A stretch of DNA of 20,000 bases. Origin: an uncultured virus (IMG/VR IMGVR_UViG_3300045391_004154) (lineage: Duplodnaviria > Heunggongvirae > Uroviricota > Caudoviricetes). Position numbers and translations under genes: made by a program. The notes beneath the pieces were generated by a model. The model saw only the letters and a program-made list of their open reading frames with translations. It did no database searches and was not told the origin of the DNA. The stretch lies in IMG/VR virus record IMGVR_UViG_3300045391_004154. One strand, 5' to 3'. This document shows positions 1,452-20,000 of this stretch, piece after piece (the stretch's first letter is position 1; each line of letters opens with the position of its first letter).

Positions 1452-1473
1452 GTCTAACTTACCTCTTCAATAT

Positions 1474-1506: not shown

Positions 1507-1512
1507 GGCTTC

Positions 1513-1545: not shown

Positions 1546-1630
1546 AAATCAATTGGGTGGCGCGTGCTGGCTGGCGACGTAGAGCATATAACCCACGATC
1601 ATGAGCACGGTAACGGTGACGCAGATAAAG

Positions 1631-3595: not shown

Positions 3596-3846
3596 TTGCG
3601 ACACTCCGATGGAATATTCACGGGGTCCTGCAGGATGGTATTGGGAGAGCGCGCCTCCACCAGGCGGCCGTGCCAATAGCCATTGAGATAGCAGGCCTGG
3701 CTCGCGGCGCGATAGGCAGCGTTGAGCTTCTCCCGGCTATCGCTTCGCAGCGTGGGGGAAGCCTCGGTAAAGGCTATCACGACCATGATAATCGCGGCGT
3801 TGCTTATAAAAACGCTGGTGATAATTATAGCCGCTCTCATATCCAC
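3592..3846 (-). CDS. Small protein with an N-terminal hydrophobic (membrane/signal) segment
   Basis: 84 aa with the hydrophobic stretch AAIIITSVFISNAAIIMVVIAF. It overlaps the helicase stop. Confidence 0.55.
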   Translation of the reverse strand: MDMRAAIIITSVFISNAAIIMVVIAFTEASPTLRSDSREKLNAAYRAASQACYLNGYWHGRLVEARSPNTILQDPVNIPSECRK

Positions 3847-5465
3847 TTCCCCGAATGCTCGTTCAAGATCAGGTCGCTCAGCTTGCGGCGCGCCCGGTGC
3901 GAGCGCACGATGTCCTCGTCCTTGGTCTCCGCGGCGATGAGGTCGATGATGCCGGTGGCGATTGTCCTCAATCCCGTTTGCGCTCTGACTTCGGATTGAA
4001 GCCTCTGGTTCAATCCGAATTCAGAGGAGTAGTACATCATCCACTCGGCCGCTGATACATTCACAGCTCTGCCGGCAGAACGAGTCTTCGCCACGAATGT
4101 ATCAGCGTCCCCGGCCTGGAACGCGGCCTTGTTGCGGTGCTTGGTCTCGTCGTCCACCTGGCCGTCGTAGCGGACGGGCCGGCGGCCTAGTTGGCGACTG
4201 AGTTCAAGAACGTCGTCGATATCCTGGTTGAAGCGGCACCAGATGATTGCCGGTTGGGGAGCGGCCTTGAACTCGGCGGCAAGGCCAAGAAGCTTTGGGT
4301 TTCGATCCACCGGAACAATGCGCTGAAGGGGGATTTGGGTTTCAATAACTCCAAGACCGTCACAAGCGGCGCAGCCGTCGCCCTCGCCGGAGCATAGCTC
4401 GCACACCTCGGCAGCCTTCGCGTTGGGCCAAAATCCGCTGGTAAGCTGCTGAAGGCGCAGGTAGCGAGTGAGAACGTTGGCGACCGTAACCTTGCCGAGG
4501 TGCTGGAGCTCCAGCTCGTACTCGGTGGACAGCTTCTCGTATGCGGCTCGCTGCTCATCGGTCAACTCCACGTAGCGCTTCTGATAGATGGGATCGGGGA
4601 CATTGGCAAAGACCTCCTTGAAGCGCACTCTATAAGTGTGCGGCGCAATGAGGCGCTGCAGCTTGTCGAGGTTGCGATAGATGGGCTGGCCCTGGTCGTC
4701 CTTCTTGATCTGTTTAAACGCCTTGGCATTCTTGCCGTACTGCATCACCTGCTGCTCGGAATATTCGGCGCGGAAGGCGGTGGCGTTGGAGCCGAGAATG
4801 TGCTCGCTGAGGAAGCGATACTGGGCGAACAGGTCAAAGGGACCTTCACCCGTGGGCGTGCCGTCCAGCACGCGCCGCATCTCCGCCTTCTTGCTCATCC
4901 AGTGCAGCGACTTGGTGCGCGCCGCGTCGGGAGACTTCATGAGCAGCGTGCCCTCGTCGCCGACCAGCAGGGTCTTGCGCTTCACCAGGAAGTGGTTGAG
5001 CATGTAATCGCAGAAGGCGGGCGTGTTGGTGCTTTCGCCGTTGATGCAGATGATGGCCAGGCCCTCGTAGGTGAGCAGGTCCTTGAGGAGCTCGGTATGG
5101 GTGAGGTTCTTGACCTTGAAGCGGCCGGGACGGTTCGGATCGCGCTTCTTGGTCTTGCCCGATTTGGTCGGGTCCCACAGCAGGGTGCGCCGCTCGATGA
5201 AGGCCGGCAGCATGAGGGCGTTGATCTCGTCCAGCCAGTTGCGCGGCGCGCCGCTCGGCATGGCCGCGATCACCAGGCCATTGATGCGGCGGTTGAGGAA
5301 GTTGAGGCCCGCGGTATCCAGCACCACCTGGGTCTTGCCGGTGCGCTGCTCCATGGAGAGGTAGAAGCCCGTGCGATCGTGCGATCGGGCGAAGCCCTCC
5401 ACCTGGTGGTCCCAGCGGGTGCGATCGGGCAATGGCGCTGACGCCAGATATTCGTCCACGTTCAC
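3837..5465 (-). CDS. SNF2-like superfamily 2 helicase
   Basis: 542 aa. Q motif WDHQ, motif I MEQRTGKT, motif II LVGDEGT, motif III LDGTP, RLQQLTSGF, motif IV IIWCRF, motifs V/VI SAGRAVNV...RLQSEVRA. RBS GGAGA. Confidence 0.92.
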   Translation of the reverse strand: MNVDEYLASAPLPDRTRWDHQVEGFARSHDRTGFYLSMEQRTGKTQVVLDTAGLNFLNRRINGLVIAAMPSGAPRNWLDEINALMLPAFIERRTLLWDPTKSGKTKKRDPNRPGRFKVKNLTHTELLKDLLTYEGLAIICINGESTNTPAFCDYMLNHFLVKRKTLLVGDEGTLLMKSPDAARTKSLHWMSKKAEMRRVLDGTPTGEGPFDLFAQYRFLSEHILGSNATAFRAEYSEQQVMQYGKNAKAFKQIKKDDQGQPIYRNLDKLQRLIAPHTYRVRFKEVFANVPDPIYQKRYVELTDEQRAAYEKLSTEYELELQHLGKVTVANVLTRYLRLQQLTSGFWPNAKAAEVCELCSGEGDGCAACDGLGVIETQIPLQRIVPVDRNPKLLGLAAEFKAAPQPAIIWCRFNQDIDDVLELSRQLGRRPVRYDGQVDDETKHRNKAAFQAGDADTFVAKTRSAGRAVNVSAAEWMMYYSSEFGLNQRLQSEVRAQTGLRTIATGIIDLIAAETKDEDIVRSHRARRKLSDLILNEHSGKWI

Positions 5466-6288: not shown

Positions 6289-6436
6289 GTATTTTTTAGG
6301 TTTGTCTTCAGTTTAAAATCTCCGTGCGCGTATACGCGGGCGCGCGGGAGGACGCGGTGGCCTGGGGAGAAGATCAGCAGAGACGAAGTTTTAAGGATTT
6401 GTGGAGAAGGATGCGGGGACATCTGGGAGGCGATGC

Positions 6437-6943
6437 ATGAAGCGATGGTACGTGGCGAGAACCCAACCGGGTCTCGGGATCATCGCGGAGCGTGAGCTGC
6501 AAAAGAGCTACGGCGATAGGCCGGCATTTCAAACGCTGCTGATAATGGATGGAAAGGGGCGATCGGTATTCGGGCCATATATCTTCATTGAGATTGATCT
6601 TGACGAGGATTATTGGGAGCCAATCAATTCAGTGCGAGGAGTGAGCCGGCTTCTGCCCATCGGCACTGCCACCCCCCTGCCACTTCCAGAAACGTTCATG
6701 CGGGAATTGCGAAAGCGGCTGGGTAGCGGGGATTTTGATGAGCGGGCCGCGGCGGAATTGGTCTATGCCTACTCGCCGCAGGAGCCGGCGCTGGTGACTT
6801 CGGGACCGTGGGAGGGTCATGTTGGCAATTTTGTTCGACGAAAGAAAGGATTTATAAACCTTTCTCTGGTACTGTTCAACCGTCCATTCGAAATTCCAGT
6901 TCCGGCCCACCAGGTCCGACCCGCGTCGCCCAAAGCAGCTTGA
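6437..6943 (+). CDS. NusG/RfaH-family transcription antitermination factor
   Basis: ATG at 6437 with RBS GGGAGG. NGN-domain features: WYVARTQPG, VFGPYIFI, WEPINSVRGVSRLL, PLPLPE. KOW-like C-terminus VTSGPWEGHVG...LVLFNR. Confidence 0.88.
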   Translation: MKRWYVARTQPGLGIIAERELQKSYGDRPAFQTLLIMDGKGRSVFGPYIFIEIDLDEDYWEPINSVRGVSRLLPIGTATPLPLPETFMRELRKRLGSGDFDERAAAELVYAYSPQEPALVTSGPWEGHVGNFVRRKKGFINLSLVLFNRPFEIPVPAHQVRPASPKAA

Positions 6944-6996: not shown

Positions 6997-7485
6997 ATGG
7001 CCGGCAAAGCAGTAGCAAAAACAAATGGTCACGGCGGCGCCCGCCCGAATGCGGGCCGAAAGCCGGGTGGCCTGGGTGAGAAGGCTCGGGCCTATGCGGC
7101 GGAAGCGGCTGAGGAGGGCGTTCGCCCCATCGATGTGATGCTCGGCAATATGCGCTATTACCATGAGCGTGCCGTTGACTTCGACAAGAAGTTGGAAGCT
7201 ATCGCCGAGACCATGACGGCGGAGCAGATCGTCAAGGGCGGTGAAGAGGTCATGAACGTTTTGAAGCTCGTCGCCAAGATCGGCGAGTTTCGCATGAAGG
7301 CGCAACAGTGCGCCGTGGATGCGGCACCCTATGTTCATCCGCGCTTGACCGCGATCGCGGTGAAGGTGGACAATGGCGATTCCCAGAAGCCGCTGTTGAC
7401 CTTGACCGAGCAGAAGACGGCGCAGCAGGCGGCGGACGCCTACGCGAGCATGCTAGCCGGCACCTATCGTGAAACTGCAGTATAA
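6997..7485 (+). CDS. terS: Terminase small subunit (putative)
   Basis: HGGARPNAGRKPG and AAPYVHPRL motifs. It lies directly upstream of, and overlaps, TerL. Confidence 0.8.
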   Translation: MAGKAVAKTNGHGGARPNAGRKPGGLGEKARAYAAEAAEEGVRPIDVMLGNMRYYHERAVDFDKKLEAIAETMTAEQIVKGGEEVMNVLKLVAKIGEFRMKAQQCAVDAAPYVHPRLTAIAVKVDNGDSQKPLLTLTEQKTAQQAADAYASMLAGTYRETAV

Positions 7486-9223
7486 GCCGCCCGTAGTTCT
7501 GGGCAAGAGCAGTTGGCCGCCCGATTACATGGCGGTGCACAAATGGCGCCAGCAACAGCTGATGATCTTTCGAAAAGATCAGAAGATGCTTGAGGCAGCG
7601 TTGGCCTACTATGCGATGCCCGAGCACGCAGCCGAGTTCATCTGCCACTGGGTTGACACCTACGACCCGCGCAATGCCGGCTCCAACCTGCCGACGCGCC
7701 TGCCACTGATTCTGTTTGAGAAGCAGGCCGAGCTCGTCGATTTTCTCAATAGTCTGGTCAAGAACCAGCAGAATGGGCTCATCGACAAGAGCCGCGACAT
7801 GGGTGCAACCTGGCTCTGCTGTGCCTACAGCGTGTGGGCCTGGTTGTTCATTCCCGGCGTTTCGATCGGCTGGGGCTCGCGCAAGCAGGAGCTGGTCGAC
7901 AAGCTCGGCGACATGGACAGCATCTTTGAGAAGCTGCGCCAACTCATTCGCGGCTTGCCGCGCGAGTTCTTGCCGCATGGCTTTGCCTACGCGCGCCATC
8001 TGAGCTTTGAGCGGATATTGAATCCCGAGACCAACGCCAGCATCACAGGCGAGGTCGGCGATAACATCGGTCGTGGCGGCCGCAAATCGTTTTACTTCAA
8101 GGATGAGAGCGCCCACTATGAGCACCCCGAGCTCATCGAGGCGGCACTGGGCGACAACACCCGCGTCCAGGTAGACATCTCAACGCCGAATGGCATTGGC
8201 ACCGTCTACGATCGCAAGAAGGAAAGCGCGATCGAGTGGAAGCCGGGTGACAAGATGAAGCCCGGTTTCACGCAGATGCTCGTGATGGACTGGTCACATC
8301 ATCCGGCCAAGACGCAGGCCTGGTATGATGAGCGGCAGGCCAAGATGAAGCGCGAAGGCCTCATCCACATCTTTCGCCAGGAAGTGGACCGCAACCCGGC
8401 GGCCTCGCTCGTCGGCGTCATCATCCCGCCCGAGTGGGTCAACGCCGCGGTGGACGCCCATGTAAAGCTGGGCTTCGGCGCGACTGGCAACCTGGTGGGA
8501 GCACTGGACGTGGCCGATGAGGGTGGTGATCTGAACGCACTGACTCTGCGCAAGGGCGTGATATTGCAGATGGCGGAGGACTTCGCCGGTGATGAGGAGG
8601 GCGTGGGCAAGAGCGCGCGCTATGCCATCGGCGAGCTGCACCAGCGTGGCTGCTTCAACCTGCAATATGATTGCTGCGGCATTGGCGCCGGCGTGAAGAC
8701 CGAGGCCGCCAGGCTGCGCAAGGAGAAGAAGCTGCCGCATGGTTTCCAGGTCATCGCCTGGGATGCGGGCCAGAGCGTGCTGCGGCCCAAGGAGCGCGTG
8801 GTGCCGGGTGACAAGACCTCACCACTGAATGAGGACTTCTACAAGAATTTGAAGGCGCAGGGCTGGTGGGAGTTGCGCCGGCGGTTCGAGAAGACCTTCC
8901 AGATGGTCACCGAGCCGTATATCTACCAGTACAAATTCAACGAGCTCATTTCACTGCCGAGCACGTTGCCGCGGCTGCCGCAGCTCAAGCGTGAGCTCTC
9001 GCAGCCCACGATCAAATATGATGGCGCCATGAGAATCATGGTGGACAAGAAACCAGACGGCGCGAAGTCGCCCAACCTTGGAGATAGCGTAATGATGGAT
9101 TACTTCCCGCTCCAGGGCGCGATGGTCGTCACCGACCAGCACCTGCGCAGCATGGGCCAGCCGACTCCGATGAAGATCAGAGGCGGCCAGTCCCAGCAAG
9201 ATCAGGTATCGCAGTTCCGGTGA
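7469..9223 (+). CDS. terL: Terminase large subunit
   Basis: Walker A KSRDMGATW, Walker B FYFKDESAH, ISTPNG, and nuclease acidic motifs ALDVADEGGD and SPNLGDS. Confidence 0.95.
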   Translation: MKLQYKPPVVLGKSSWPPDYMAVHKWRQQQLMIFRKDQKMLEAALAYYAMPEHAAEFICHWVDTYDPRNAGSNLPTRLPLILFEKQAELVDFLNSLVKNQQNGLIDKSRDMGATWLCCAYSVWAWLFIPGVSIGWGSRKQELVDKLGDMDSIFEKLRQLIRGLPREFLPHGFAYARHLSFERILNPETNASITGEVGDNIGRGGRKSFYFKDESAHYEHPELIEAALGDNTRVQVDISTPNGIGTVYDRKKESAIEWKPGDKMKPGFTQMLVMDWSHHPAKTQAWYDERQAKMKREGLIHIFRQEVDRNPAASLVGVIIPPEWVNAAVDAHVKLGFGATGNLVGALDVADEGGDLNALTLRKGVILQMAEDFAGDEEGVGKSARYAIGELHQRGCFNLQYDCCGIGAGVKTEAARLRKEKKLPHGFQVIAWDAGQSVLRPKERVVPGDKTSPLNEDFYKNLKAQGWWELRRRFEKTFQMVTEPYIYQYKFNELISLPSTLPRLPQLKRELSQPTIKYDGAMRIMVDKKPDGAKSPNLGDSVMMDYFPLQGAMVVTDQHLRSMGQPTPMKIRGGQSQQDQVSQFR

Positions 9224-11277
9224 AGCCCCACAAGCCCGGCGAATATACCCGGCGCAAGCGCCGGCAACCCGCGCCCGCGAAGAAGCGGCCGGCGATCGCC
9301 AAGCATCCAGTGAAGGCCAAGGCCAAGCCGGGACCGCGCCTGCGCGAGACCGGCCTGGGAGCCGACCAGCTTTCGCAGTTCACCGGCATTCAGCGCGAGC
9401 TGAAGAAGCAGGGCCGCAAGGAGCTGAAGGGCAAGCGCCTATTCCGCATCACCGATCAGATGCTGATGAACGCCAAGGGCAGCACGGCCGGCAGCGTGGA
9501 GCTGGCGCGGCGCATCTTTGCGGCCGCGAAGCCATTGCCGACGGTGATCCCAAAGGACAACACCAAGGCCCTGCTGGCCATGGACGAGAACATTTCGCTG
9601 TTCACCGCCTGGGCCGCGCAGAGCATCTACAACGGTGCGTTCCAGCAGGGCGTGACCTTCCTGGGCTATCCATATCTCGCCGAGCTCGCGCAGCGCGGCG
9701 AGTATCGGCGTGTGAGCGAAGTTATCGCCACCGAGATGACGCGCAAGTGGATCGAGGTCAAGGCCCACAGCGCGCAGAAGCTCCAGGTAACGCTGGCCGA
9801 GACGGAGGGCCAGGACACCGAGGAGGAGGACCTCAACGCCGGCGGGCCCGAGGAGGCGGACGAGCTCGAGGGCAATGATCCCAGCTTCCAGTACGATGAC
9901 GAGACGGCCAACGACAAGGCGCCAGTGGCCTGGGCCGACACCGAGCAGCAGGCCGAGCAGATGGCCGCGAGCCTGCAGGCTGAGCCGGCGCAGCAGCAGA
10001 ACGGCGAGGCGCCCACCGATCCCAACGCCAACATCGAGGCGGACGGCGAGGCGGACATTGACGTGGACGGCGCGGTGGCGGAGAGCCAGCCATCAGCACC
10101 GGACAAGACGGCCAAGATCAAGGAGCTGAACGAGGAGCTGGAACGTTTAAACGTCCAGGCCATCTTCAAGAGCATCGCCGAGCAGGATGGCTTCTTTGGC
10201 CGCGCCCATCTCTACATCGACACGGGCCACACCGACAACCTGCCCGAGCTCAAGATGCCCATCGGCGACGGCCAGGACCAGGTGTCAATGGCCAAGCTCC
10301 AGGTCGGCAGCATCAAGGCGCTCAAGACCGTTGAGGCCATCTGGTGCTATCCGGCCAACTACGACAGCTTTGACCCGCTCAAGTCAGACTGGTATCGGCC
10401 GTGCTCCTGGTTCGTCCAGGGCAAGGAAGTTCATTCATCTCGCCTGCTGACCTTCGTCGGGCGCGAGGTGCCGGACATGCTGAAGCCGGCCTACTCGTTC
10501 GGGGGCCTATCGCTCTCGCAGATGATAAAGCCGGTGGTCGACAACTGGCTGAACGTGCGCCAGAGCGTCGCCGATATCATCAAGGCCTTTACGGTTTTCG
10601 TACTGAAGACCAACCTGGCCACGCTGATGATGGAGGATGGCGACCAGGTAACGCGCCGCGCCGATTACTTCAACGCCACGCGCAGTAATCGCGGCGTGAT
10701 GATGGTGGACAAGGAGACGGAGGACTTTGCCAACGTCTCCGCGCCGCTTGGCTCATTGGACAAGCTCCAGGCCCAAGCGCAGGAGCACATCTGCTCGCTG
10801 TCCGGCCTCCCCCTGGTCAAGTACACCGGCATTTCGCCCAGTGGCCTCAACGCCACGAGCGAGTTCGAAATTCAGGTCTTCTACGACTGGGTGCGCGCCT
10901 ATCAGATGTGGTTCTTTGCGCCAAACCTGACGCGGGTATTCCACATGGCCCAGATTAATCTCTGGGGTGCCGTGGACCCGGACCTGTATTACGAGTTCTT
11001 GCCGCTCCAGGAGCTGAGCGAGAAGGATCGCGGCGACATGGAGAAGTCCGAGGCCGATCGCGACAAGGTGCTGATCGATGCCGGCGTGCTCCACGCGGAG
11101 GAAGTCCGCGCGCGGCTGAGCCAGGAAGATTCCGGACCGTATGCCGGCATCGACGTGAACAACGTCCCCGAGCCGCCGATGCCGCCGGGTGGTGAGGACC
11201 CGTTTGGCCGCGAGGAGGGCTTCGACGAGGAAGGCCCGGGCGGCAAGGGTGAAATTCCAGAAGGGCTGAATAAATGA
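9220..11277 (+). CDS. Portal protein (DUF1073-type)
   Basis: Follows TerL with a GTGA overlap. Contains FLGYPYLAELAQRGEYR, EMTRKWI, VHSSRLLTF, YSFGGLSLSQ and LVKYTGISPSGLNATSE. Confidence 0.9.
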   Translation: MKPHKPGEYTRRKRRQPAPAKKRPAIAKHPVKAKAKPGPRLRETGLGADQLSQFTGIQRELKKQGRKELKGKRLFRITDQMLMNAKGSTAGSVELARRIFAAAKPLPTVIPKDNTKALLAMDENISLFTAWAAQSIYNGAFQQGVTFLGYPYLAELAQRGEYRRVSEVIATEMTRKWIEVKAHSAQKLQVTLAETEGQDTEEEDLNAGGPEEADELEGNDPSFQYDDETANDKAPVAWADTEQQAEQMAASLQAEPAQQQNGEAPTDPNANIEADGEADIDVDGAVAESQPSAPDKTAKIKELNEELERLNVQAIFKSIAEQDGFFGRAHLYIDTGHTDNLPELKMPIGDGQDQVSMAKLQVGSIKALKTVEAIWCYPANYDSFDPLKSDWYRPCSWFVQGKEVHSSRLLTFVGREVPDMLKPAYSFGGLSLSQMIKPVVDNWLNVRQSVADIIKAFTVFVLKTNLATLMMEDGDQVTRRADYFNATRSNRGVMMVDKETEDFANVSAPLGSLDKLQAQAQEHICSLSGLPLVKYTGISPSGLNATSEFEIQVFYDWVRAYQMWFFAPNLTRVFHMAQINLWGAVDPDLYYEFLPLQELSEKDRGDMEKSEADRDKVLIDAGVLHAEEVRARLSQEDSGPYAGIDVNNVPEPPMPPGGEDPFGREEGFDEEGPGGKGEIPEGLNK

Positions 11278-11807
11278 CCAACATGGTAGCACGCCACCAG
11301 GAGCTGGCGCAGAAGGCCAAGGCCGCCGGCTCTCTCGAGGGCTTTGTCATTCACACTCGGGCGGCGAACGCGCATGCCGTCGCGCACGTCTCACCGTTGC
11401 ACGCCAATGCCGCGGCACTTGCCACGGGCCTGGCCTTTGATGGCTGGAACGAGAGCGATCATCCCCGTTCCGATAACGGGCAGTTTGGCTCGGCGACCAG
11501 CGCGCACAGCTCCATTGGGAGTAAGAGCGAGGCACAGGGTCATGCGCACAAATCGCTGCATGAGTCCGATTTTACCGAAGGTGCTCCAAATCATTTGGGT
11601 CGGCAAGGTAGCCTGCGGAACTATCACGGCAAGCACAAGGGCGAGGGCGCAACCGCCAGTCGCCTGAGCGTTGAGCCAGGGGGTGAGTGGAGTCATCATG
11701 AGCAGTACACGGCGGGAACACCCGACAAGGTGCTGCGCGCGGGTAAGAACCATGAGGACCTGGCGGCTTATTTAAAGGAGCATGCTGAAAAGCACGCGAA
11801 GAAGTAG
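11274..11807 (+). CDS. Accessory head-module protein carrying LAFD plus the HPR tag (candidate internal capsid protein)
   Basis: 177 aa, ATGA-coupled to the portal. Contains LAFDGWNESDHPRSDNGQFGS followed by one copy of a small alpha/beta module also seen in the ART protein. Confidence 0.75.
   Translation: MTNMVARHQELAQKAKAAGSLEGFVIHTRAANAHAVAHVSPLHANAAALATGLAFDGWNESDHPRSDNGQFGSATSAHSSIGSKSEAQGHAHKSLHESDFTEGAPNHLGRQGSLRNYHGKHKGEGATASRLSVEPGGEWSHHEQYTAGTPDKVLRAGKNHEDLAAYLKEHAEKHAKK
11430..11492 (+). repeat. Dispersed coding repeat, copy 1 (LAFDGWxESxHPRxxNGQFGS)
   Basis: By manual alignment it shares 52/63 nt and 17/21 aa with 15141-15203. Confidence 0.9.
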
Positions 11808-11809
11808 GC

Positions 11810-12622
11810 ATGGTGAAGAACGCCAAGCCCAAGCTCCTCAAGCCGGTTCGGCCCTCCGCGGCCATTGACGCCTGGTACAAGCGCAAGCTGGACCAGATGA
11901 TTGATGAAATGAATGCGTCGATTGCCTTCTGGCTGGAGCGCTCCTACGCCAGCCGCCAGGACCAGATCGTGGCAATGGATGAGCTGCCCGCCAAGCAGCT
12001 CAGTCGCGCGCTGAACAAGCTGCGCCGGCGCTGGCAAAAGAACTTTGATGAGGCGGCGCCCAAGCTGGCGAAGTATTTCACCCAGCAGGTGGACGACCGC
12101 AGCAAGAAGCAGCTGCAGGACATCTTGAAGGAGGCCGGCTTTTCGGTGGAGTTCACGATGACCTCCAAGCAGGCCGACGGCATTCGGGCCAACATCACCG
12201 AGAACGTGTCGCTGATCCGGTCCATCCCGCAGAAGCACTTTACCGACATCGAGGGCATGGTGATGCGCTCGGTCCAGGCCGGCCGCGATCTTCACACGCT
12301 GAGCAAGCAGCTGGAGAAGCAGTACGGCAAGACCAAGAAGCGGGCGGCATTGATTGCTCGCGACCAGAACAACAAGGCTACGGCCTTCTTGACACGCACT
12401 CGCCAGGGCGAGCTCGGCGTGAAGAAGGCCATCTGGGTGCATAGTCACGCCGGAAAGGTGCCGCGGCCGACGCACCTGGCCAACGACGGCAACGCCTACG
12501 ACATCACCAAGGGCTGGTACGACCCCGACGCCAACGGCAAGGGCAACGGCGCCTACATCTTTCCCGGCGAGCTTATCAACTGCCGGTGTATTTCCAGGTC
12601 CATCATTCCAGGGTTTTCATGA
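11810..12622 (+). CDS. Head morphogenesis protein (Mu gpF / SPP1 gp7-like, MuF)
   Basis: ENVSLIRSIP, RAALIARDQNNKA, WVHSHAGKVPRPTH and PGELINCRC. Confidence 0.92.
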   Translation: MVKNAKPKLLKPVRPSAAIDAWYKRKLDQMIDEMNASIAFWLERSYASRQDQIVAMDELPAKQLSRALNKLRRRWQKNFDEAAPKLAKYFTQQVDDRSKKQLQDILKEAGFSVEFTMTSKQADGIRANITENVSLIRSIPQKHFTDIEGMVMRSVQAGRDLHTLSKQLEKQYGKTKKRAALIARDQNNKATAFLTRTRQGELGVKKAIWVHSHAGKVPRPTHLANDGNAYDITKGWYDPDANGKGNGAYIFPGELINCRCISRSIIPGFS

Positions 12623-12813
12623 GCACGTTGAAACTGGACGCCAACGACACGCAGTTTGTTGCGCTTGCCACCTCGCTCGGCTTCACCGAGATGGAGGGCA
12701 GATACCTGGTGCGCGGCAAGCCGCTCAGTGCGGATGAGACCGAGCGGGTCCGCGATGCGCTGCAGGGCGGCATGTTTAAACTCTACCACGCCGAGGTGAG
12801 GGGTAGCGCATGA
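12619..12813 (+). CDS. Hypothetical protein (64 aa)
   Basis: ATGA overlaps at both ends; begins MSTLKLDAND. Confidence 0.65.
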   Translation: MSTLKLDANDTQFVALATSLGFTEMEGRYLVRGKPLSADETERVRDALQGGMFKLYHAEVRGSA

Positions 12814-13439
12814 GACCGCGCGAACAGATACTGAACTTCTTCAAGCAGTATCCCACGCGCCGGCCGGTCTCGCGCGTTGCGCTCTCGGGTGTCCTGAACA
12901 TCGCCTACCCCACGCTGGACGTGGTGCTGGAGCAGCTCAAGAGCGAGAACATGTTGGAGCAGACCAGCTGCAACGAGTGGCGGCCGACGCTGGCCTTTGT
13001 TCGCCTGGAGCTCGCCAAGCGCGAGGTGGCGGACGAGCATGCGGTGATGGTGATCACCAAAACCGCCGAGCGTCGGGCCAAGGCCGACAAGGTACGGTCG
13101 GAGAAGCTGGCCAAGCGCGAGGCCGCAATGCAGCAGCGCCTGCTGGAGCGCCTGCAGCGGGAAACGCAGCGCGCCAAGGAGCGCGAGCAGAACCGCCTGG
13201 TGCGGATGGCGGAGCGGGCGGATAAGGCGATGATCAAGCGCCTGGAGAACATTCTGGACGAGCGGCCCGTCCCCGGCAAGATACCGCCGGCCGTTGCCGA
13301 GCCGATCGTGTTCGTGCCCAAGGTGGTTCACTCCACGGACGACGCCTGGGCCCGCGTGCGGGCACGGCACTATTCCAAGCCGGCTTACCTGGGCAGCGAC
13401 TTCGTGCCCAATGAGAAAAAGATGATGGGAAGCCGATGA
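12810..13439 (+). CDS. Putative HTH plus coiled-coil protein
   Basis: N-terminal wHTH-like ILNFFKQ...VSRVALSGVLNIAYPTLDVVLEQLKSENML, then a long R/E/K-rich helix. ATGA-coupled at both ends. Confidence 0.6.
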   Translation: MRPREQILNFFKQYPTRRPVSRVALSGVLNIAYPTLDVVLEQLKSENMLEQTSCNEWRPTLAFVRLELAKREVADEHAVMVITKTAERRAKADKVRSEKLAKREAAMQQRLLERLQRETQRAKEREQNRLVRMAERADKAMIKRLENILDERPVPGKIPPAVAEPIVFVPKVVHSTDDAWARVRARHYSKPAYLGSDFVPNEKKMMGSR

Positions 13440-13741
13440 AACTGGTCAAGTGGCCGACAAAGGCCGAGCACGGGCAGCACACTTACCACTGGTGCCCGGC
13501 CTGCGAAAAGCTGCACGTCCTGCCAGACAGCTGGAGTCGCAGCGGGCCGGATGAGGCGCCGAGCTATTCGCCGAGCTTCCTGCAGTACGACGCCAGACCC
13601 GAGGGTAATTGCCACTATATCATTACCGCGGGCGTCATTCAATTCTGCCCCGATAGCTGGCACAAGCGCGGCGACGCGGTGCCGATGCCGGAGATACCCG
13701 AGACCGTGCTGGCGAAGCTGACCGAGGAGGTTTTCCGGTGA
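13436..13741 (+). CDS. Cys/His metal-binding protein, DUF6527-like, copy 1
   Basis: HWCPACEKLH...W...G...PSYSPSF...CHYIITAGVIQFCPDSWH. Confidence 0.75.
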   Translation: MKLVKWPTKAEHGQHTYHWCPACEKLHVLPDSWSRSGPDEAPSYSPSFLQYDARPEGNCHYIITAGVIQFCPDSWHKRGDAVPMPEIPETVLAKLTEEVFR

Positions 13742-14148
13742 ACGCAATGGAGGAGCCAGTGCAGCGCTTCCAGCGCCTCAGCGCCAAGATGATCCGGCGC
13801 TGCGGCTACCACTTTCCAGTCGGAGCCTGGACGCACGCGCACTGGTGTCCGGCCTGCGAGGAGCTTCACGACTTTGCGGTGGAGCAGCCCTTCACCAACG
13901 GCGCGCGCTGGACGGTGAGCGGCCTGGGCTTTGAGGCGCCGACGCTCAGCCCGAGCATGAACATCACCGTGGGCCCATTTCCCGTCGGCAGCGAGAAGCC
14001 CGGTGCGATGGAGGTCTGCCATTATTTCTTGACCAACGGCAAGCTGCTCTATCTGACTGATTGCACGCACCGGCTTGCCGGCCAAACCGTGGAGCTGCCG
14101 GATATCCCGGCCAGGGCTCTCCAATATATGACCGAGGTCTCACAATGA
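13738..14148 (+). CDS. Cys/His metal-binding protein, DUF6527-like, copy 2
   Basis: HWCPACEELH...W...G...PTLSPSM...CHYFLTNGKLLYLTDCTHRLAGQTVELPDIP. Confidence 0.75.
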   Translation: MNAMEEPVQRFQRLSAKMIRRCGYHFPVGAWTHAHWCPACEELHDFAVEQPFTNGARWTVSGLGFEAPTLSPSMNITVGPFPVGSEKPGAMEVCHYFLTNGKLLYLTDCTHRLAGQTVELPDIPARALQYMTEVSQ

Positions 14149-14453
14149 GCGAACACCTGCGCGAGTTCACGCGCCATCTGATTGACGAACGCGAGGGCGT
14201 GCCGGTACAGGTCGCCACGATCGTAGCCGTCTTCACCAACCTGGGCAACCTCATCGAGGGCAAGACGCCGGCCGAGCAGCGCGCGGCTGCGCGCGAGCTC
14301 CTCAAGGAGGACAAGGGCCTGGCCTTTGACGAGGAGGCCGACACCTTCGACACCATCAACGAGGGTGAGAGCGCCGAGGAGTTTGAGGCGCGCCGCCAGG
14401 CTGGCTTGGATTGGCCCACGATCACCGAGATTGTACGCGCGCCCAATGCCTAG
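14145..14453 (+). CDS. Acidic hypothetical protein (102 aa) with an internal LAFD
   Basis: ATG at 14145 (ATGA overlap, GAGGT RBS); KGLAFDEE with LAFD at 14319-14330. Confidence 0.65.
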   Translation: MSEHLREFTRHLIDEREGVPVQVATIVAVFTNLGNLIEGKTPAEQRAAARELLKEDKGLAFDEEADTFDTINEGESAEEFEARRQAGLDWPTITEIVRAPNA

Positions 14454-15111
14454 CGTCTCGGAAAAGCAGCACAACGCCATGGAGGCGGCCGCGCACGGCC
14501 ACTCCACGCTCGGCATTCCGGCCTCGGTCGGAAAAGAGTTCGTTCAGGCCGATAAGCTCGGTAAGGACGGCTTCACCGATTTGGGCGAGAGTAACGGACC
14601 GAGCAAGCCCCGTGCCGCCGGTGTCCTGGTGCGCGATTCGGATGGCCGCGTGCTGTTCGGTCGCCGCTCGGGCACCGGCGACTACGGTGGCCACTGGGCG
14701 CTGTTCGGTGGTGGCGTGGAGGACGGCGAGACCGATGAGGAAGCGGCGCGCCGCGAGCTCTACGAGGAGAGCGGCTACAAGGCCGATGCTCTCAACCACG
14801 TGCACGAGCACGACTTTGGCGGCTTGAACTTCGCGACCTTCGCGCATGATGTGGAAAAGCCCTTCGCGCCTGCGCTGACGGATGAGCATGACGCGTGGGC
14901 CTGGGCCCATCCGAGCTCGCCGCCATCCCCCCTGCACCCCGGCGTTGCCGCGACGCTCGGCGACGTGGCGCGCGAGCAGGAGCAGAAGTTCACCTGGGGG
15001 CCGGGCATGATGGAGATTGAGCAGCCGGAAAATCCCCAGCCGGCGCCGCCCTACGTCGAGGAGATCGATGACCCGGGCGAGGCCGCGGTAGAGATCGAGA
15101 TTTCGGAATAA
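14446..15111 (+). CDS. Nudix hydrolase with an N-terminal leader
   Basis: Likely start is the ATG at 14446 (MPSVSEKQH). Complete Nudix box GGVEDGETDEEAARRELYEESGY at 14710-14778, then LTDEHDAWAW...PLHPGV. Confidence 0.92.
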   Translation: MPSVSEKQHNAMEAAAHGHSTLGIPASVGKEFVQADKLGKDGFTDLGESNGPSKPRAAGVLVRDSDGRVLFGRRSGTGDYGGHWALFGGGVEDGETDEEAARRELYEESGYKADALNHVHEHDFGGLNFATFAHDVEKPFAPALTDEHDAWAWAHPSSPPSPLHPGVAATLGDVAREQEQKFTWGPGMMEIEQPENPQPAPPYVEEIDDPGEAAVEIEISE

Positions 15112-17132
15112 TGATTCCGAACCTGAATTCACTGGCGCGCCTGGCGTTTGACGGCTGGAGCGAGAGCGAGCATCCTCGCGCCAGCAACGGTCAGTTTGGC
15201 TCGGGCGGCGGCAGCGGCCCCAAGATGCGCGACTACGCGCCCAAAGAGCTGGACTGGGAATATGACGTGGAATACGGCAAGTATTCCAAGCATGCCTTCC
15301 CCGACGCGTTCAAGTCGCGCGACGACTTCCAGCAGAAGTTTGATGCGGCGCCGATGCGCCCGCTCACGGAGGCGGAGTTCAGGGGGCTGGGCAATTCGAT
15401 GGCCGCAGCTGGCATTGGAAAGAATGAGAAGTGGGTGCACGAGAATTTCTCGCATCGCCGCGACAGCAGGCGCATCATCGATGCCCTGAAGAACGGTGAG
15501 ACGGCGCCGCCGATCGTGCTCAAGAGCGGCAAGCGCCTGCGGTTGATGGCGGGACAGACCCGCCTGGCGGCCGGCGCCGCACTCGGAATGAGCGTGCCGG
15601 TGAAGATCATTGACGTGGGACCAGGCGGCCAGGCCAGCGATGAGGCCGACTTCAAGGAGTCGCAGCACCCGCGCGATAAGGATGGCAAGTTCACGAGCGG
15701 TGGCGGCAGCTCCGGCACGGGCCCGAGCAACATGAACAAGCCGGTGCAGGTCTCCACCACGATCGGCCAGCCGCTGAGCAAGGCCGGGTTCAAGAAGGTG
15801 AAGCAGCCAGGCCCGAACGGATCGGTGACGTATTTCCATCCCAGTGGAGTGAAGGTGCACGTGCACCCGGCACCCGAGGGCAAGAAGTATTCCAGCAAGT
15901 GGACGCACGAGGCCGAGGGCCAGCAGACGGCTGGAGAGGGTTCCAAGCTGGAGCAGCTGCTGAGCAAGCTGGTGCAGAAGGCGGAAGCGGCGAAGCCGGC
16001 GACATCAGAGAAAAGCGGAACTCCCGCGGAGCAGGCCGAGAGCGCGCTGAATAAAGCGGGCTGGGAAAATAATAGCTTGCTGTCAACCCCGATGGTTGCC
16101 GCGTATAAAAATCCGAATAGCGACTCCACCTTCTACGTGAACAAGGTGGACGGAAGCTGGTTCAAGGTACTACCGACCGGGAAGACCGTTGGCGGTGAGA
16201 ACCTGGGAGAACTACAGGCAAAGCTGGGGCAGCAAAAAGCTGAACTAGCACCAGCGCCGCTTGACGGTGCGACCGTTGCCGCGGTGAAGGCCTCGGGCGA
16301 GATGCTCAAGGACAAGGGCTACAAGCCGCTGGAGGTGAACGGCACGACCGTCATCTATGAAAAGAATTTGCCCGGCCAGCCTGGAAATGGCAAGGTAAAA
16401 TATGATGCCAAGACCCACGAGTGGGTAGCGCAGACACACGGTCACATGACCAAGGAGGGAAAGGGTTTAAACGAGCTCGACCTCCTTCTAGGTGGCAACG
16501 GCATTCCGGCTGGTGTCAAGAACTCGCAGCAGACCATCCAGACCCAGGCCGAGTTGGCGCAGCAAACGGAAGCGCAGAAGAAGGCACAGGCGGCGCAGAA
16601 GGAACACAATACCCTCAAGAGCACCTATCACAAGCTCGTGGCGCAGGCTCCGCATCCGACCGCGACGCAGCAGAACGCCATCAGCAAGTACAGTGGCAAC
16701 GGGTATCATCAGTGGAACGACAAGCTCCGCCACGATCCGAACTTCGCCAAGAGCGATCCACTGACCAAGCACCTGGACGACTACCTCAACAACGCGGTGT
16801 TTGAGGAGGACTTCACGGTAACGCGCAAGGTCGATGGCGATTATGCCAAAATCCTCAAGAGCATCATCTTCGAGGGCACGAAGTTCATCGATCGCGGCTA
16901 TATCAGCACCAGCGCCACCGGCCAATGGAGCGGCAGCTTCAAGTTTGTCATTAGCATCAAGAAGGGTCAGCGCGGCGCGGCGATCGGCAAGTGGTCGCAC
17001 CATCCGTCCGAGGATGAGGTGCTGCTGCCACGCAATTCGGCCTTCGTCGTCAAGAGCTACGACCACGGCAGCGGCACCGTGCACGTTGATTTGGACCAAA
17101 GCCACTTTGAGGAAATGAAGAAGGCGGCATGA
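15111..17132 (+). CDS. Multidomain effector: tag, ParB/Srx-like domain, second tag, three repeats, VIP2/Alt-like ADP-ribosyltransferase
   Basis: 673 aa. ParB-like PPIVLKSGKRLRLMAGQTRLAA. ART features: AISKYSGNGYHQWNDKLR, catalytic R (VTRK, 16824), STS (16905-16913) and ExE (SEDEVLLPRN, 17010-17018). Confidence 0.9.
   Translation: MIPNLNSLARLAFDGWSESEHPRASNGQFGSGGGSGPKMRDYAPKELDWEYDVEYGKYSKHAFPDAFKSRDDFQQKFDAAPMRPLTEAEFRGLGNSMAAAGIGKNEKWVHENFSHRRDSRRIIDALKNGETAPPIVLKSGKRLRLMAGQTRLAAGAALGMSVPVKIIDVGPGGQASDEADFKESQHPRDKDGKFTSGGGSSGTGPSNMNKPVQVSTTIGQPLSKAGFKKVKQPGPNGSVTYFHPSGVKVHVHPAPEGKKYSSKWTHEAEGQQTAGEGSKLEQLLSKLVQKAEAAKPATSEKSGTPAEQAESALNKAGWENNSLLSTPMVAAYKNPNSDSTFYVNKVDGSWFKVLPTGKTVGGENLGELQAKLGQQKAELAPAPLDGATVAAVKASGEMLKDKGYKPLEVNGTTVIYEKNLPGQPGNGKVKYDAKTHEWVAQTHGHMTKEGKGLNELDLLLGGNGIPAGVKNSQQTIQTQAELAQQTEAQKKAQAAQKEHNTLKSTYHKLVAQAPHPTATQQNAISKYSGNGYHQWNDKLRHDPNFAKSDPLTKHLDDYLNNAVFEEDFTVTRKVDGDYAKILKSIIFEGTKFIDRGYISTSATGQWSGSFKFVISIKKGQRGAAIGKWSHHPSEDEVLLPRNSAFVVKSYDHGSGTVHVDLDQSHFEEMKKAA
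15141..15203 (+). repeat. Dispersed coding repeat, copy 2 (LAFDGWSESEHPRASNGQFGS)
   Basis: Matches 11430-11492. A third, diverged copy (QASDEADFKESQHPRDKDGKFTSGGG) lies at 15630-15707. Confidence 0.9.
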
Positions 17133-18619
17133 TTGAAATACATCTAGTCGACAAGCAGTGCGTGATCATGGGACGCCCGGACCTGGGCGGCTTTCCCAAT
17201 CCCTTTGCCGCGCTCAAGGCGGCGGAGCTGCTCGGCATGGACGAGATGCCGAACCGCACCATCGATCGCGATGGCCGCATGCACGTGCGCACCTCGAAAA
17301 TCTCGAAGGCGAACGTCTGCGACTATTACGGCCGAGAGATTCCGAACTGGGACAAGCTGGGCCTGGACCCGCTGCGCAAGTACCGGCTGCTCCGTCATCC
17401 GGACGAGCTTGCCAAGGCCGCGGCGACCTTCAACAATCTGCCGATCCTCATTCAGCACAAGCACGTGACGGCCGACGATCACCAGCCGCACCTGATCGTG
17501 GGCACGACGGGCTCGGATGCCCGCTATGAGCACCCGTATCTGAAGAACGGCACGAGCTTCTGGGCCGGCGGCGCCATCGATGGCGTCCGCACCGAAGCCA
17601 TGAATGAGCTTTCCAGTTCTTACCATTACCGTCCGGACATGACCCCGGGTGAGTATGAGGGAGAGGCCTACGATGGAGTAATGCGCGATATCGTAGGAAA
17701 CCATGTCGCATTGGTCCGTGATGGACGAGCCGGGGACGACGTCGTCGTCGGCGACAGCAAACCAGAGGAGTATCTTATGAGCAAGACTGTGTTGTCGCGC
17801 ACGGCTCTCTACGCCGCGGGGGCCTTGCAGGCCCTCATCGGTGCGAAGCTGGCGATGGATGAAAAGCCGATTGACACCTCGGCGGTTTTCGAGGGCGTAA
17901 CGGCCAAGAACTTCAACGAGCAGAAGCCGGTGGTCAAAACCCGGCTGATGAAGTTGCTGGAGGGCGTCAAGCTCGCCCAGGACGCCACGCCCGAGGAGCT
18001 CGCCGGCTACGCTGAAAAGATGGAGATGCCGGCGGTGCAGGAGGGCGCAGATGCGGACCCCGAAACCGGCGCGCCGCTCGATCTGGATGCGCTCAAGTCG
18101 GCCATGCACGATCCGGGTGCCTCCGACATTGACGTGGACGAAAAACGGCGCGAGTTTCTCGCAGGCAAGCTCTCCGCCGACGACATGAAGGCCTACGACG
18201 CGTTGGGCGGCGCTCCGTCCGAAGAAGCAGTGGTTGCACCCGAAAAGGAGAAAATCGAGGACATGATCACCAAGCCGGCCATGGATGAGGCCATCAAGTC
18301 TGCTACCGAAACCGCCATCGCTGGCGAGCGTCGGAACCAGCAGGCCATCCACGCCGCTCGCGAGGCGGTCGAGCCCTTTGTCGGCAAGCTCTCGCTGGCA
18401 TTCGACAGTGCACCCGATGTGTACCGCAAGGCCCTGACCATGCTGGGCGTGAAGGACGCGGAGAAAATCCACGCCGACGCGCTGCCGCACGTCCTGGCCT
18501 CGCAGCGCAAGCCGGGAGAGCGCGTCAATCACGGTCGTCCGAGCCTGGCACACGACGCCAGGCCGTCGGAGGACTTCACCACTCGCTTCGCCGGTGCCGC
18601 ACGCATCGGTGTTGCGTAA
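17129..18619 (+). CDS. Prohead protease/scaffold (DUF2213-type)
   Basis: ISKANVCDYYGREIP, RHPDELAKAAATFNNLPILIQH, ELSSSYHY and GNHVALVRDGRAG, followed by a helical/acidic scaffold-like C-terminal half. Confidence 0.9.
   Translation: MIEIHLVDKQCVIMGRPDLGGFPNPFAALKAAELLGMDEMPNRTIDRDGRMHVRTSKISKANVCDYYGREIPNWDKLGLDPLRKYRLLRHPDELAKAAATFNNLPILIQHKHVTADDHQPHLIVGTTGSDARYEHPYLKNGTSFWAGGAIDGVRTEAMNELSSSYHYRPDMTPGEYEGEAYDGVMRDIVGNHVALVRDGRAGDDVVVGDSKPEEYLMSKTVLSRTALYAAGALQALIGAKLAMDEKPIDTSAVFEGVTAKNFNEQKPVVKTRLMKLLEGVKLAQDATPEELAGYAEKMEMPAVQEGADADPETGAPLDLDALKSAMHDPGASDIDVDEKRREFLAGKLSADDMKAYDALGGAPSEEAVVAPEKEKIEDMITKPAMDEAIKSATETAIAGERRNQQAIHAAREAVEPFVGKLSLAFDSAPDVYRKALTMLGVKDAEKIHADALPHVLASQRKPGERVNHGRPSLAHDARPSEDFTTRFAGAARIGVA
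17777..18619 (+). CDS. Possible nested in-frame scaffold protein
   Basis: GAGGAG (17765-17770) lies 6 nt before an in-frame ATG (MSKTVLSR), right after the protease domain. Confidence 0.55.
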   Translation: MSKTVLSRTALYAAGALQALIGAKLAMDEKPIDTSAVFEGVTAKNFNEQKPVVKTRLMKLLEGVKLAQDATPEELAGYAEKMEMPAVQEGADADPETGAPLDLDALKSAMHDPGASDIDVDEKRREFLAGKLSADDMKAYDALGGAPSEEAVVAPEKEKIEDMITKPAMDEAIKSATETAIAGERRNQQAIHAAREAVEPFVGKLSLAFDSAPDVYRKALTMLGVKDAEKIHADALPHVLASQRKPGERVNHGRPSLAHDARPSEDFTTRFAGAARIGVA

Positions 18620-18646
18620 ACCTCGACACGAAAGGAGATACAACTC

Positions 18647-19618
18647 ATGTCGTTGGGAATTCAAACTCAGGTCGGCGCCGCCAACGTCCCCGCAATTGCG
18701 GGTGACTGGGCCTCCGGCAACCCGCGTGCGTTCTTCGATGCGGGCCCGGGTGGCCTGGTCGCGGGCCTCTCGGGACTTACCGTTGGCGTCTTTGCCTGGG
18801 CGAGCTCCGCGCGCGTCGATGGCGATGGCGCTCCGGCAATCGCCAACAACTTCGGTGCGGGAGTACCCACGGGCATTCTGCATCGTCAGCAGCAGGCCCT
18901 CATCACGACCTTCTTGGCCGATGCCTCGATGGTCGTTCCCTCCGGCATCCAGGTGGCGCTCTGCACCGCCGGTGATATCTGGGTGAAGAACGATGGCGCC
19001 ACGCAGGCGCTGCCGGGCCAGAAGGCCTATGCGAACCTCACGACCGGCAAGATCAACTTTGCCGCGACCGGGGCCGCAACGGCTGGCGCCACTTCTTCGG
19101 CGTCCACCATCGCTGCTGCAACCAGTTCCACGACTGGCTCCATCAACAACAACGTGCTGACCATCACGGCCGTGGGCTCGGGTACCGTTTACCCCGGCAC
19201 GACCATCAGCGGCACGGGCGTGGCGACCGGCACCAAGATCGTGTCGCAGCTCACCCCCCTGCTCTCGGGCGAAGCGCTGGGCGGCATTGGCCGTTACGCG
19301 GTGTCGATCCCCGAGCAGTCGGTTGCTTCCACGACCATCAGCGGCACCTATGGCCTGCTGACCGTGGGCGGCACCGTTGCGGGCACCTTCGCCGTCGGTC
19401 AGGCTCTCGCCGCGACCGGCTCGGTGGTGGCGGGCACGACCATCACGGCACTGGGCACTGGCGTCGGTGGCGCCGGCACCTATGTCGTGGACAACAACAC
19501 GGTGGTTGCCTCCCAGGCCATCAACGTGCTGGCGGTCAACGTCGAAACCCGGTGGTACGCGGTCAGCTCCGGCCTTGCCGGTGAGCTGGTCAAGATCACC
19601 TCGCATCCGGTCGGCTAA
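18647..19618 (+). CDS. Head decoration / minor capsid protein with inserted beta-rich repeats
   Basis: RBS AAAGGAG; lies between the protease and MCP genes. Contains AGDWASGNPR, GLTVGVFAW, GILHRQQQALIT, GDIWVKN and GELVKIT. Confidence 0.8.
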   Translation: MSLGIQTQVGAANVPAIAGDWASGNPRAFFDAGPGGLVAGLSGLTVGVFAWASSARVDGDGAPAIANNFGAGVPTGILHRQQQALITTFLADASMVVPSGIQVALCTAGDIWVKNDGATQALPGQKAYANLTTGKINFAATGAATAGATSSASTIAAATSSTTGSINNNVLTITAVGSGTVYPGTTISGTGVATGTKIVSQLTPLLSGEALGGIGRYAVSIPEQSVASTTISGTYGLLTVGGTVAGTFAVGQALAATGSVVAGTTITALGTGVGGAGTYVVDNNTVVASQAINVLAVNVETRWYAVSSGLAGELVKITSHPVG

Positions 19619-19645
19619 CGGCCACTCGAAAGGAGCATGAAACAA

Positions 19646-20000
19646 ATGAACTTGATTGAAGCACAAGCCCTGTTCGAGTCGGATCGTCCGCACCTCGAAG
19701 AACTGGGCATCAGCCTGCCGGCGGTGATGTCGTACCTGCCGACCGGTGCCAAGAAGAACTGGACCATCGCGTTCGATGCCCAGCCCAGCCTGACAACGGA
19801 CCCGAACTCCGCCGTGCCGGCGATGCTCACCACGATGATCGATCCCGACGTCATCAAGGTGCTGTTCTCGCCGACCAAGGCCGCCGAGATTCTCGGTGAA
19901 AAGCGCAAGGGTACCTGGCTGGATGACGTTATCATGTTCCCGGTCACCGAAGACACCGGCGAGGTTTCCTCGTACGATGACTTCGCGGAGAACGGGCGCA
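19646..20000 (+). CDS. Major capsid protein (DUF2184-type), 5' part only
   Basis: Not in the ORF track. RBS AAAGGAG is 10 nt before the ATG at 19646. MNLIEAQ...WTIAFDAQPSLTTDPNSAVPAMLTTMIDPDVIKVLFSPTKAAEILGEKRKGTW...GEVSSYDDF, open to the window end. Confidence 0.88.
   Translation, partial: MNLIEAQALFESDRPHLEELGISLPAVMSYLPTGAKKNWTIAFDAQPSLTTDPNSAVPAMLTTMIDPDVIKVLFSPTKAAEILGEKRKGTWLDDVIMFPVTEDTGEVSSYDDFAENGR

Follow-up and report, generated by a model that had tools for sequence, protein, structure and literature searches.

Phages are predicted to carry in their heads enzymes for disarming the host during the first seconds of an infection, and we know of no account of how such enzymes are chosen and released outside T4, P1 and a few giant phages. 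In T4 the address is an N-terminal capsid-targeting leader, which is removed by gp21, and a short protease consensus is found in capsid, scaffold and cargo proteins. The head protease of phiKZ and SPN3US cuts ejection and inner-body proteins at S/A/G-x-E. Here we describe a 20,000-nucleotide (nt) stretch of an uncultured virus of the Caudoviricetes (IMG/VR record IMGVR_UViG_3300045391_004154), referred to throughout as the window, which holds the head-morphogenesis operon of a tailed phage. Two of its accessory proteins, p11274 and a polyprotein with an ADP-ribosyltransferase (ART) domain, carry a short peptide, the HPR tag or header, that stands just after an A-x-D motif and may label capsid cargo.

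Head-packaged, injected ART and Nudix effectors tied to portal, MuF and protease have been predicted in the main text of two papers (Iyer et al. 2017, PMC5512222; 2022, PMC9503650), the first of which also cites T4 Alt packaging there. Neither main text mentions a header peptide with an A-x-D site ('HPR' occurs 0 times), and a search of open-access text, limited and no proof of absence, found no description of an HPR motif with phage or portal. Packaged effectors linked to portal or MuF are a published concept; the tag itself was not found described.

The HPR tag and its modules

A six-frame translation of the window contains the pattern HPRxxxGxF at exactly three places, each in frame: at residue (aa) 63 of p11274 and at aa 21 and aa 186 of the ART polyprotein. 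The original prediction had recognized these three copies in two proteins and their position just after A-x-D. The window copies follow [FW]xExxHPRxx[DN]G[KQ]F-GSGGG and each lies 1–4 residues past an A-x-D, the residues before copies 1, 2 and 3 being LAFD-GW, LAFD-GW and ASDEAD-F. The DNA of copies 1 and 2 agrees at 83% over 69 nt and forms the longest good direct repeat of the region; third codon positions account for most of the differences. L002, a relative of 54% identity, retains the tag in all three positions.

Across all the tags listed, the consensus is D-x-[DE]-[FW]-x-E-[SGA]-x-H-P-R-x-x-[DN]-G-[KQ]-F-[GT]-S-G-G-G, with a variant HPRGQPGNAGQF. The E, H, R and G residues are invariant and the P and F nearly so across very distant phages, and the header of about 22 residues is followed by a glycine-rich linker. 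The leader before the site differs by lineage (MIPNLNSLARLAFD in the window, alternating His in other phages) and is only 2–6 residues long in some tagged proteins; therefore the tag, not the leader, is the conserved element. No Pfam, NCBIfam or named PHROG family covers the tag in the window proteins or in 144 tag-bearing proteins, and the only models that include it are two unnamed fused-protein profiles, phrog_30637 and phrog_15528.

ART is the only domain that Pfam names in the polyprotein (PF03496, 59.5 bits against a cut-off of 23.4). It contains RGYISTSAT and PSEDEVLLPR, which we take to be the STS and E-x-E catalytic motifs of C3/VIP2/Alt-like R-S-E exoenzymes. Tag copy 2 is followed by a first module for which a ParB-like identity is no more than a lead (an Atlas score of 0.89, and PF02195 found in 21% of one cluster), and tag copy 3 by a module without an assigned domain and then by ART. 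At E≤1, Pfam returned no family for aa 34–180 of the polyprotein, p11274, p14145, the scaffold half of the protease protein or the N-terminal motif of the Nudix protein. The two tags, together with the loss of a module in L003, suggest that the polyprotein has at least three modules.

The ART protein of L003, an 88% relative, lacks exactly the first tag-plus-module unit of the window protein, and two further proteins (P0051 and P0079) begin at the equivalent of tag 3. The L003 portal continues into PPAFD/ADFDESKHRR and a His-rich tail at the point where the window portal ends and p11274 starts. L008 and L009 differ solely by the presence of a tag, directly after A-E-D. The fusion and module loss in L003 and the tag indel between L008 and L009 indicate that the units behave as cassettes bounded by tags. 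The L002 ART protein is tagged at the same two positions as that of the window, and a 150-aa His-rich protein with an N-terminal tag lies between ART and protease; in L055 a free-standing 189-aa ART with an N-terminal tag lies between portal and protease.

The Nudix protein, a separate gene in the window with the ART gene inserted between it and the protease gene, is fused to the N terminus of the DUF2213 protease in 13 related loci (L007, L010, L013, L015, L019, L020, L022, L028, L034, L035, L041, L043 and L044), where a conserved [LI]-A-F-D-R site separates the protease domain from the N-terminal part. What its relatives have as fused chains is partly split in the window: portal / tag-p11274, Nudix / tag-ParB-like-tag-X-ART / protease. 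The N terminus of the Nudix protein bears a second header-type motif, PSVSEKQHNAMEAAAHGHSTLGIP..VGKEF. Its general form, (P)xVSExQxxAMxAAAxGxSxLGIPxxVGxEF, has 10 regex matches in the sequences examined, occurs also in L003, L007, L015, L019, L020, L032, L041, P0005 and P0035, and stands directly after A-x-D-type sites in fused relatives (LAMD/PPVSE, IATD/PPVSE, AQD/KSVSP).

Spread of the tag and its partners

A profile of six tag copies searched against 5.8 billion proteins (longer proteins only) gave 129 matches at E≤10. The best 120 of these 129 contain 206 tags, and 58 of the same 120 have a portal or prohead-protease domain. In an exhaustive HMMER scan of 1.84 billion representative proteins with a 16-tag profile, 3,791 proteins matched at E≤0.001 and 392 at E≤1e-10. 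A one-in-three systematic, size-limited sample of the new top matches (40 of 133) comprised 12 proteins with a portal, MuF or Mu-protease domain, 14 without a Pfam match, and otherwise polyvalent-type effectors. The longest tagged chains seen were P0130 (7,334 aa, 20 tags) and P0131 (5,313 aa, 17 tags).

The head domains that accompany the tag are portal (PF06381, PF04860 and Portal_Mu), DUF2213, S78 and MuF; the effectors include ART, ART-PolyVal, NUDIX, Acb1, Top1B, InPase, ddrB-ParB, Zeta toxin, RelA/SpoT and GNAT. The proposition that MuF-fused proteins are never tagged was rejected: there are none among the 120 listed matches, but P0179 and P0182 are tagged MuF fusions, a minority. In Pfam-annotated proteins, 0 of 132 tags fall inside a domain, against 30% expected at random positions, and of the 62 tag proteins that lack a head domain, 53 have the start of their first tag at residue 60 or earlier.

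Genomic neighbourhoods tie the tag to head genes. In 44 loci around relatives of the protease (L002 and L004 being one contig), tags were found in 12, and in all 12 on the operon strand and at or upstream of the protease. A degenerate DNA pattern of the tag matched 15 loci in a set of one genome per prokaryote species; L047 and L060 among them are apparent chance matches. In the other 13 the tag is genuine and in frame; they fall on 12 independent contigs representing at least six phyla, and on 8 of these 12 contigs the tag is within a head module. Two others, L050 (8184–11216, − strand) and L059 (8172–11939, − strand), encode tagged Zeta-toxin polyvalent proteins adjoining DUF3560 and DNA-methyltransferase genes, with an integrase near the L059 gene. 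The contexts of L048 and L061 are uninformative, and L048 also has no recognized head genes within 5.5 kb. L048, L050 and L059 may be other mobile elements, and for L050 and L059 the context may be non-phage or a remnant. These counts bear out the expectation that the tag defines a genuine family, tied to head modules, whose members differ in their downstream domains.

Among GenBank phages the tag query found 15 records, the matched features being annotated as portal or HI1409-family (6), hypothetical (8) or not at all (1). One belongs to the cultured Pseudomonas syringae phage Orimi01, in which a 'hypothetical' gene encodes a 704-aa portal-tag-ART fusion (TASD/ADFDENKHPR) and the MuF, protease and major capsid protein (MCP) have the same A-x-D pattern.

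A putative cut site before the tag

The original prediction held that the A-x-D motif is shared by the portal, MuF, protease-scaffold and MCP proteins. The motif is present in all of them, but in its bare form it is mostly at the level of chance: portal has 4 against 4.85 expected from shuffles and ART 2 against 3.3, and only MuF (5 against 1.8, p=0.02) and the protease (13 against 5.5, p=0.002) exceed shuffled sequences. With a preceding hydrophobic residue, [LIVMF]-A-x-D is enriched in the head set (11 against 3.9, p=0.0005).

Conservation picks out particular sites. The IAFD of the window MCP stands directly before the conserved core AQPSLTTDPNSAVP, and [LIM]-A-x-D directly precedes the conserved MCP core AQPxL... 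in nearly all of 36 loci; the 35–60 N-terminal residues before it are variable, and the site is duplicated in L002, L005 and L032. In an 18-sequence alignment of the scaffold part, five A-x-D motifs supply, through their A or D, 8 of the 13 columns conserved past residue 215, and a sixth motif lies just before the protease domain. The MuF site residue D57 is invariant in 33 MuF homologues. An A-M-D at aa 70–77 is found also in the portals of PB1-like phages and Orimi01. The portal N terminus of the window is very basic over its first ~45 residues (MKPHKPGEYTRRKRRQPAPAKKRPAIAKHPVKAKAK...), 5' of the LLAMD site.

An A-x-D ends 1–4 residues before 74 of 171 unique tags, compared with 3.2% at random positions. 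In fusions with DUF2213 it precedes 11 of 20 tags and in those with DUF1073 27 of 47, but it precedes 0 of 7 tags in S78/HK97-portal fusions, where all 7 have Lys instead. In the independent genome set, A-x-D stands before 9 of 12 unique tags and Asp occupies that position in 12 of 12; these tags come from contigs with DUF1073/DUF2213 head genes plus the uninformative L061.

A structurally characterized capsid offers a further comparison. In the MCP of phage E217 (gp25) the first 65 residues are not visible and the model spans residues 66–382; in the available text the authors describe the missing part as possibly cleaved or disordered (PMC10329688, PMC11456595). The MCP of phiKT28, near-identical to E217 gp25 and of the same length, reads S61-A62-M63-D64-S65-N66. 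In the searchable literature on DUF2213 and DUF2184 we found no cleavage data or cleavage specificity.

The DUF2213 domain is predicted to have the protease fold of T4 gp21 and herpesvirus assemblin. An AlphaFold2 (AF2) model built from a 36-sequence alignment (mean pLDDT 79.5) matches T4 gp21 (5jbl) with a VIA Z of 9.9 and an rmsd of 3.1 Å over 130 residues, and the varicella-zoster virus (VZV) protease with a Z of 7.1, background being near 4.9. The top Foldseek rows are herpesvirus proteases, with weak E-values of 4e-3 to 3e-2. H110, S162 and H192, the putative Ser/His catalytic residues, are invariant in the 36 sequences. The comparative data and the E217 capsid model agree with the earlier proposal that A-x-D is the site of the DUF2213 protease, and hydrophobic-A-x-D most probably marks where the prohead protease of the phage itself cuts.

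What the header may do

We think it moderately probable that these features belong to one system. Cargo genes would be inserted between the portal, MuF and protease-scaffold genes. The cargo would reach the prohead as fusions to portal or protease, the arrangement of many relatives, or as separate proteins, the arrangement of the window; the DUF2213 protease would then cut after the Asp of A-x-D, as it would in the MCP propeptide, scaffold, portal and MuF; and each freed module would begin with the header peptide. On the reading we prefer, the header would be a portable N-terminal label that a conserved virion component reads for loading, retention or exit of cargo. A reader is proposed because the tag is N-terminal on free-standing proteins, would be kept after the presumed cut and is common to different protease families.

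Several points weigh against this reading. Cleavage, packaging, injection and the role of the header are all things that we infer. The tag repeats before every module of proteins that are already fused to portal or protease and have no need of an entry signal; it is optional on the module that distinguishes L008 from L009; and it is absent from the Nudix protein, p14145 and the other accessory proteins besides p11274 and ART, so that neither Nudix nor p14145, put forward originally as possible cargo of this kind, carries it. PB1-like phages have the same protease and MCP families and no tag. L048, L050 and L059, 3 of the 12 genome contigs, show no head gene in the surrounding 5.5 kb and also differ in what precedes the tag (Y-A-A-G and K/P in L050 and L059). 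Only 43% of all tags are preceded by A-x-D, the hydrophobic refinement of that motif was chosen after the data had been seen and then checked on relatives, and the conserved A-x-D columns could be structural. In E217 the first visible residue is 66, not 65, two after the A-M-D64, and the authors allow mere disorder. The repeats in fused chains, the optional tag on at least one module and the few loci without head genes mean that the tag is not simply an entry ticket. The T4-like addressing code first proposed finds partial support: the tag family, A-x-D as probable protease site and the protease fold agree with it, and recruitment to the prohead by the tag gains no support.

A broader version makes the header a universal portable capsid-cargo signal, exposed by the cut, read by the portal channel, MuF or the capsid interior so that each freed module is held and later leaves with the DNA, sufficient to load and deliver a foreign protein, and working across different proteases. 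We put this forward tentatively, as less likely than not.

The tag might instead be a mere linker at junctions and cassette boundaries, comparable to the pre-toxin motifs of polymorphic toxins and read by no partner. This would account for its constant position between domains, the glycine-rich linker after it, the gain and loss of modules exactly at tags (L003 against the window; the starts of P0051 and P0079) and its behaviour as an indel unit in L008 and L009. A linker has, however, no need of H-P-R or of two fixed aromatic residues, and it would hardly be conserved at the protein level across distant phages, with copies 1 and 2 differing mostly at third codon positions, or be kept at the very N terminus of 53 of 62 free-standing proteins. 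We regard it as unlikely.

We attach little weight to two other roles. In the first, the tag is the primed-side part of the protease site, an exosite that speeds or orders cargo cleavage and does nothing later; the tight spacing from Asp to tag (0–3 residues) agrees with this, as does the way the residues before the tag track the protease family (A-x-D with DUF2213, Lys with the S78/HK97 type). But the same tag is kept across different protease families and P1 residues, and because the conserved A-x-D sites of MCP, scaffold, MuF and portal all lack a tag after them, the protease does not seem to need one. In the second, which appears about as improbable, the tag acts after delivery in the infected cell, docking to a host factor or aiding refolding, and is not specific to capsids. 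A cut upstream would indeed leave the tag on the mature module, the L050 and L059 Zeta-toxin proteins have no head genes nearby, and Zeta-kinase polyvalent proteins are reported in conjugative elements as well (main text of Iyer et al. 2017, PMC5512222). Against it, where the context can be read it is mostly a head module (8 of 12 contigs; all 12 tag-bearing related loci), and, the hosts belonging to many phyla, any single target in the host would need to be universal. Chance or low-complexity matching, for which one could cite the bare A-x-D counts in portal and ART and the Gly/Ser-rich stretch after the tag, is rejected as vanishingly improbable given 3,791 proteins at E≤0.001, multi-copy arrays, positional conservation in relatives and the 0 of 132 tags inside domains.

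Were the favoured reading true, a header and cut-site code for the very common, unstudied DUF2213 family would make the choice and release of cargo testable, cargo would be predictable from sequence alone, and the code could offer a simple handle on what phages deliver to their hosts. Tag-bearing cultured phages such as the Pseudomonas phage Orimi01 and the Xanthomonas phage PhiXhv-5 make a direct proteomic test possible.

Organization of the window

The window has a G+C content of ~61%. Its plus-strand head operon runs from 6997 on, starts with a small terminase-like gene and continues in the order TerL-portal-p11274-MuF-five small genes-Nudix-ART polyprotein-DUF2213 protease-cement-MCP (Table 1). 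Eight accessory open reading frames (ORFs) between portal, MuF and protease, counted already in the original prediction, are confirmed by this layout, with ATGA/GTGA or TAATG overlaps at 9 of the 11 junctions from TerL to the protease. The same source was right that MuF is unfused: the protein has 270 aa and Phage_Mu_F as its sole domain, and ART is on a separate gene. One gene label is corrected: 18647–19618 encodes the cement protein, not the MCP, and the MCP starts at 19637.

Table 1. Features of the window, with coordinates in nucleotides and, within proteins, in residues
Feature	Position (nt)	Strand	Position (aa)	Evidence or remark
Pam3 gp34-like and Pam3 gp33-like proteins, SNF2-family helicase	504–5465	−		Pam3 gp34-like E=3e-46
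NusG/RfaH-like gene	6401–6943	+		Pfam NusG E=1e-9
TerL	7469–9223	+		phrog_2 E=6e-17; stop/portal-start overlap GTGA
Portal (Phage_portal_3/DUF1073), unfused	9220–11277	+	domain 296–616	Pfam E=6e-72
Portal LLAMD site	9571–9585	+	118–122	kept in L003
p11274, 177 aa	11274–11807	+		His/Lys-rich
p11274 LAFD	11430–11441	+	53–56	
p11274 tag copy 1	11445–11492	+	58–73	
MuF/SPP1 gp7-type minor head protein, unfused	11810–12622	+	Phage_Mu_F 146–261; VAMD 54–57	Phage_Mu_F E=4e-12; phrog_324 E=1e-74
Five small accessory genes without HPR tag	12619–14453	+		p12619, p12810, p13436, p13738, p14145
p12619	12619–12813	+		no HPR tag
p12810	12810–13439	+		conserved in L002 and L003
DUF6527 paralogue pair	13436–13741; 13738–14148	+		tandem, within head operon
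p14145	14145–14453	+	LAFD 59–62	no HPR tag
Nudix hydrolase, free-standing	14446–15111	+		Pfam NUDIX E=6e-20; no HPR tag
Nudix second header-type motif	14446–14560	+		N terminus
ART polyprotein, 673 aa	15111–17132	+		two tags, ART domain at C-terminal side
ART polyprotein leader LAFD	15141–15152	+	11–14	
ART polyprotein tag copy 2	15156–15203	+	16–31	
ART polyprotein module 1		+	~34–175	ParB-like as lead only
ART polyprotein tag copy 3	15651–15698	+	181–196	preceded by ASDEAD
ART domain	16635–17066	+	509–652	PF03496
Protease-scaffold protein	17129–18619	+	DUF2213 43–210	Pfam E=2e-45
Scaffold A-x-D sites		+	241–244, 282–285, 383–386, 423–426, 473–476	
Cement/minor capsid protein, XM1 gp53/E217 gp24 type	18647–19618	+	XM1 gp53 domain 12–161	Pfam E=4e-17; phrog_2122
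MCP, N-terminal 121 aa (DUF2184/Major_capside type)	19637–20000	+		phrog_264; cut by window end
MCP IAFD	19766–19777	+	44–47	

No Pfam, PHROG or NCBIfam match was found for p11274, and as sole query it retrieved only itself among the 5.8 billion proteins and nothing in GenBank phages; its counterparts are L002 9953–10405 and the C-terminal tail of the L003 portal. The two DUF6527 paralogues have a common HWCPACE.LH motif and their DNA agrees at 87% over 31 nt (repeat D13); a single copy is present in L002 and none was seen in L003. The C-terminal half of the cement protein is Ala/Gly/Thr-rich and repetitive (42-nt repeat family D1), with weak matches to tail-fibre-like PHROGs.

The NusG/RfaH-like gene lies immediately 5' of the head operon and may encode a phage late-gene antiterminator; its RfaH, UpxY and LoaP matches are weak, far under the cut-offs. 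Because the minus-strand genes include Pam3 gp34- and gp33-like ones, the phage has genes in common with the cyanophage Pam3 group. A megablast search of the region against phages gave no match.

Comparison with known systems

The closest described proteins are the polyvalent proteins, which in the main text of PMC5512222 and PMC9503650 comprise the same kinds of domain (ART, Nudix, ParB-like, Zeta kinase, InPase, RelA/SpoT and LPDs) in the same head-gene context, with packaging, injection and processing into units also predicted. Unlike those chains, that of the window is in part broken up into separate genes. In temperate phages the MuF polymorphic toxins, as presented in the available text of Jamet et al. 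(2017, PMC5576092), likewise tie an effector to a head protein that leaves with the DNA, whereas the window MuF is unfused.

Among phages with known capsid structures, the PB1-like E217 and Pa193 resemble the window in their homologous MCP (Pa193 gp26 and E217 gp25, E ~1e-20), a DUF2213-type 'scaffolding' protein, a cement protein, and an A-M-D before the first visible MCP residue. In the available text of PMC10329688 and PMC11456595, Pa193 gp24 is called a scaffolding protein whose residues 286–326 stay bound inside the capsid; it is not called a protease, and cleavage is left open. The N terminus of Pa193 gp24 matches the DUF2213 domain of the window. In phiKT28, A-x-D is found also in the N-terminal regions of portal and MuF, and a scan of its head genes gp20 to gp26 found no HPR tag.

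The window resembles phiKZ and SPN3US in what would be a single code of three residues, acidic at P1, that serves many head and ejected proteins. It differs from them in the motif, A-x-D here, in the much smaller size of the phages and in the header peptide, none being reported for phiKZ or SPN3US. To the T4 capsid-targeting sequence and gp21 there is no resemblance in sequence; the conserved element follows the presumed cut, the mature protein would keep it, and the HPR tag also repeats within fused polyproteins. What the two share is an N-terminal leader, a short motif (a putative cleavage consensus in the window) in capsid, scaffold and cargo proteins, a protease of the same predicted fold (Z 9.9) and an ADP-ribosyltransferase as cargo, a candidate one in the window.

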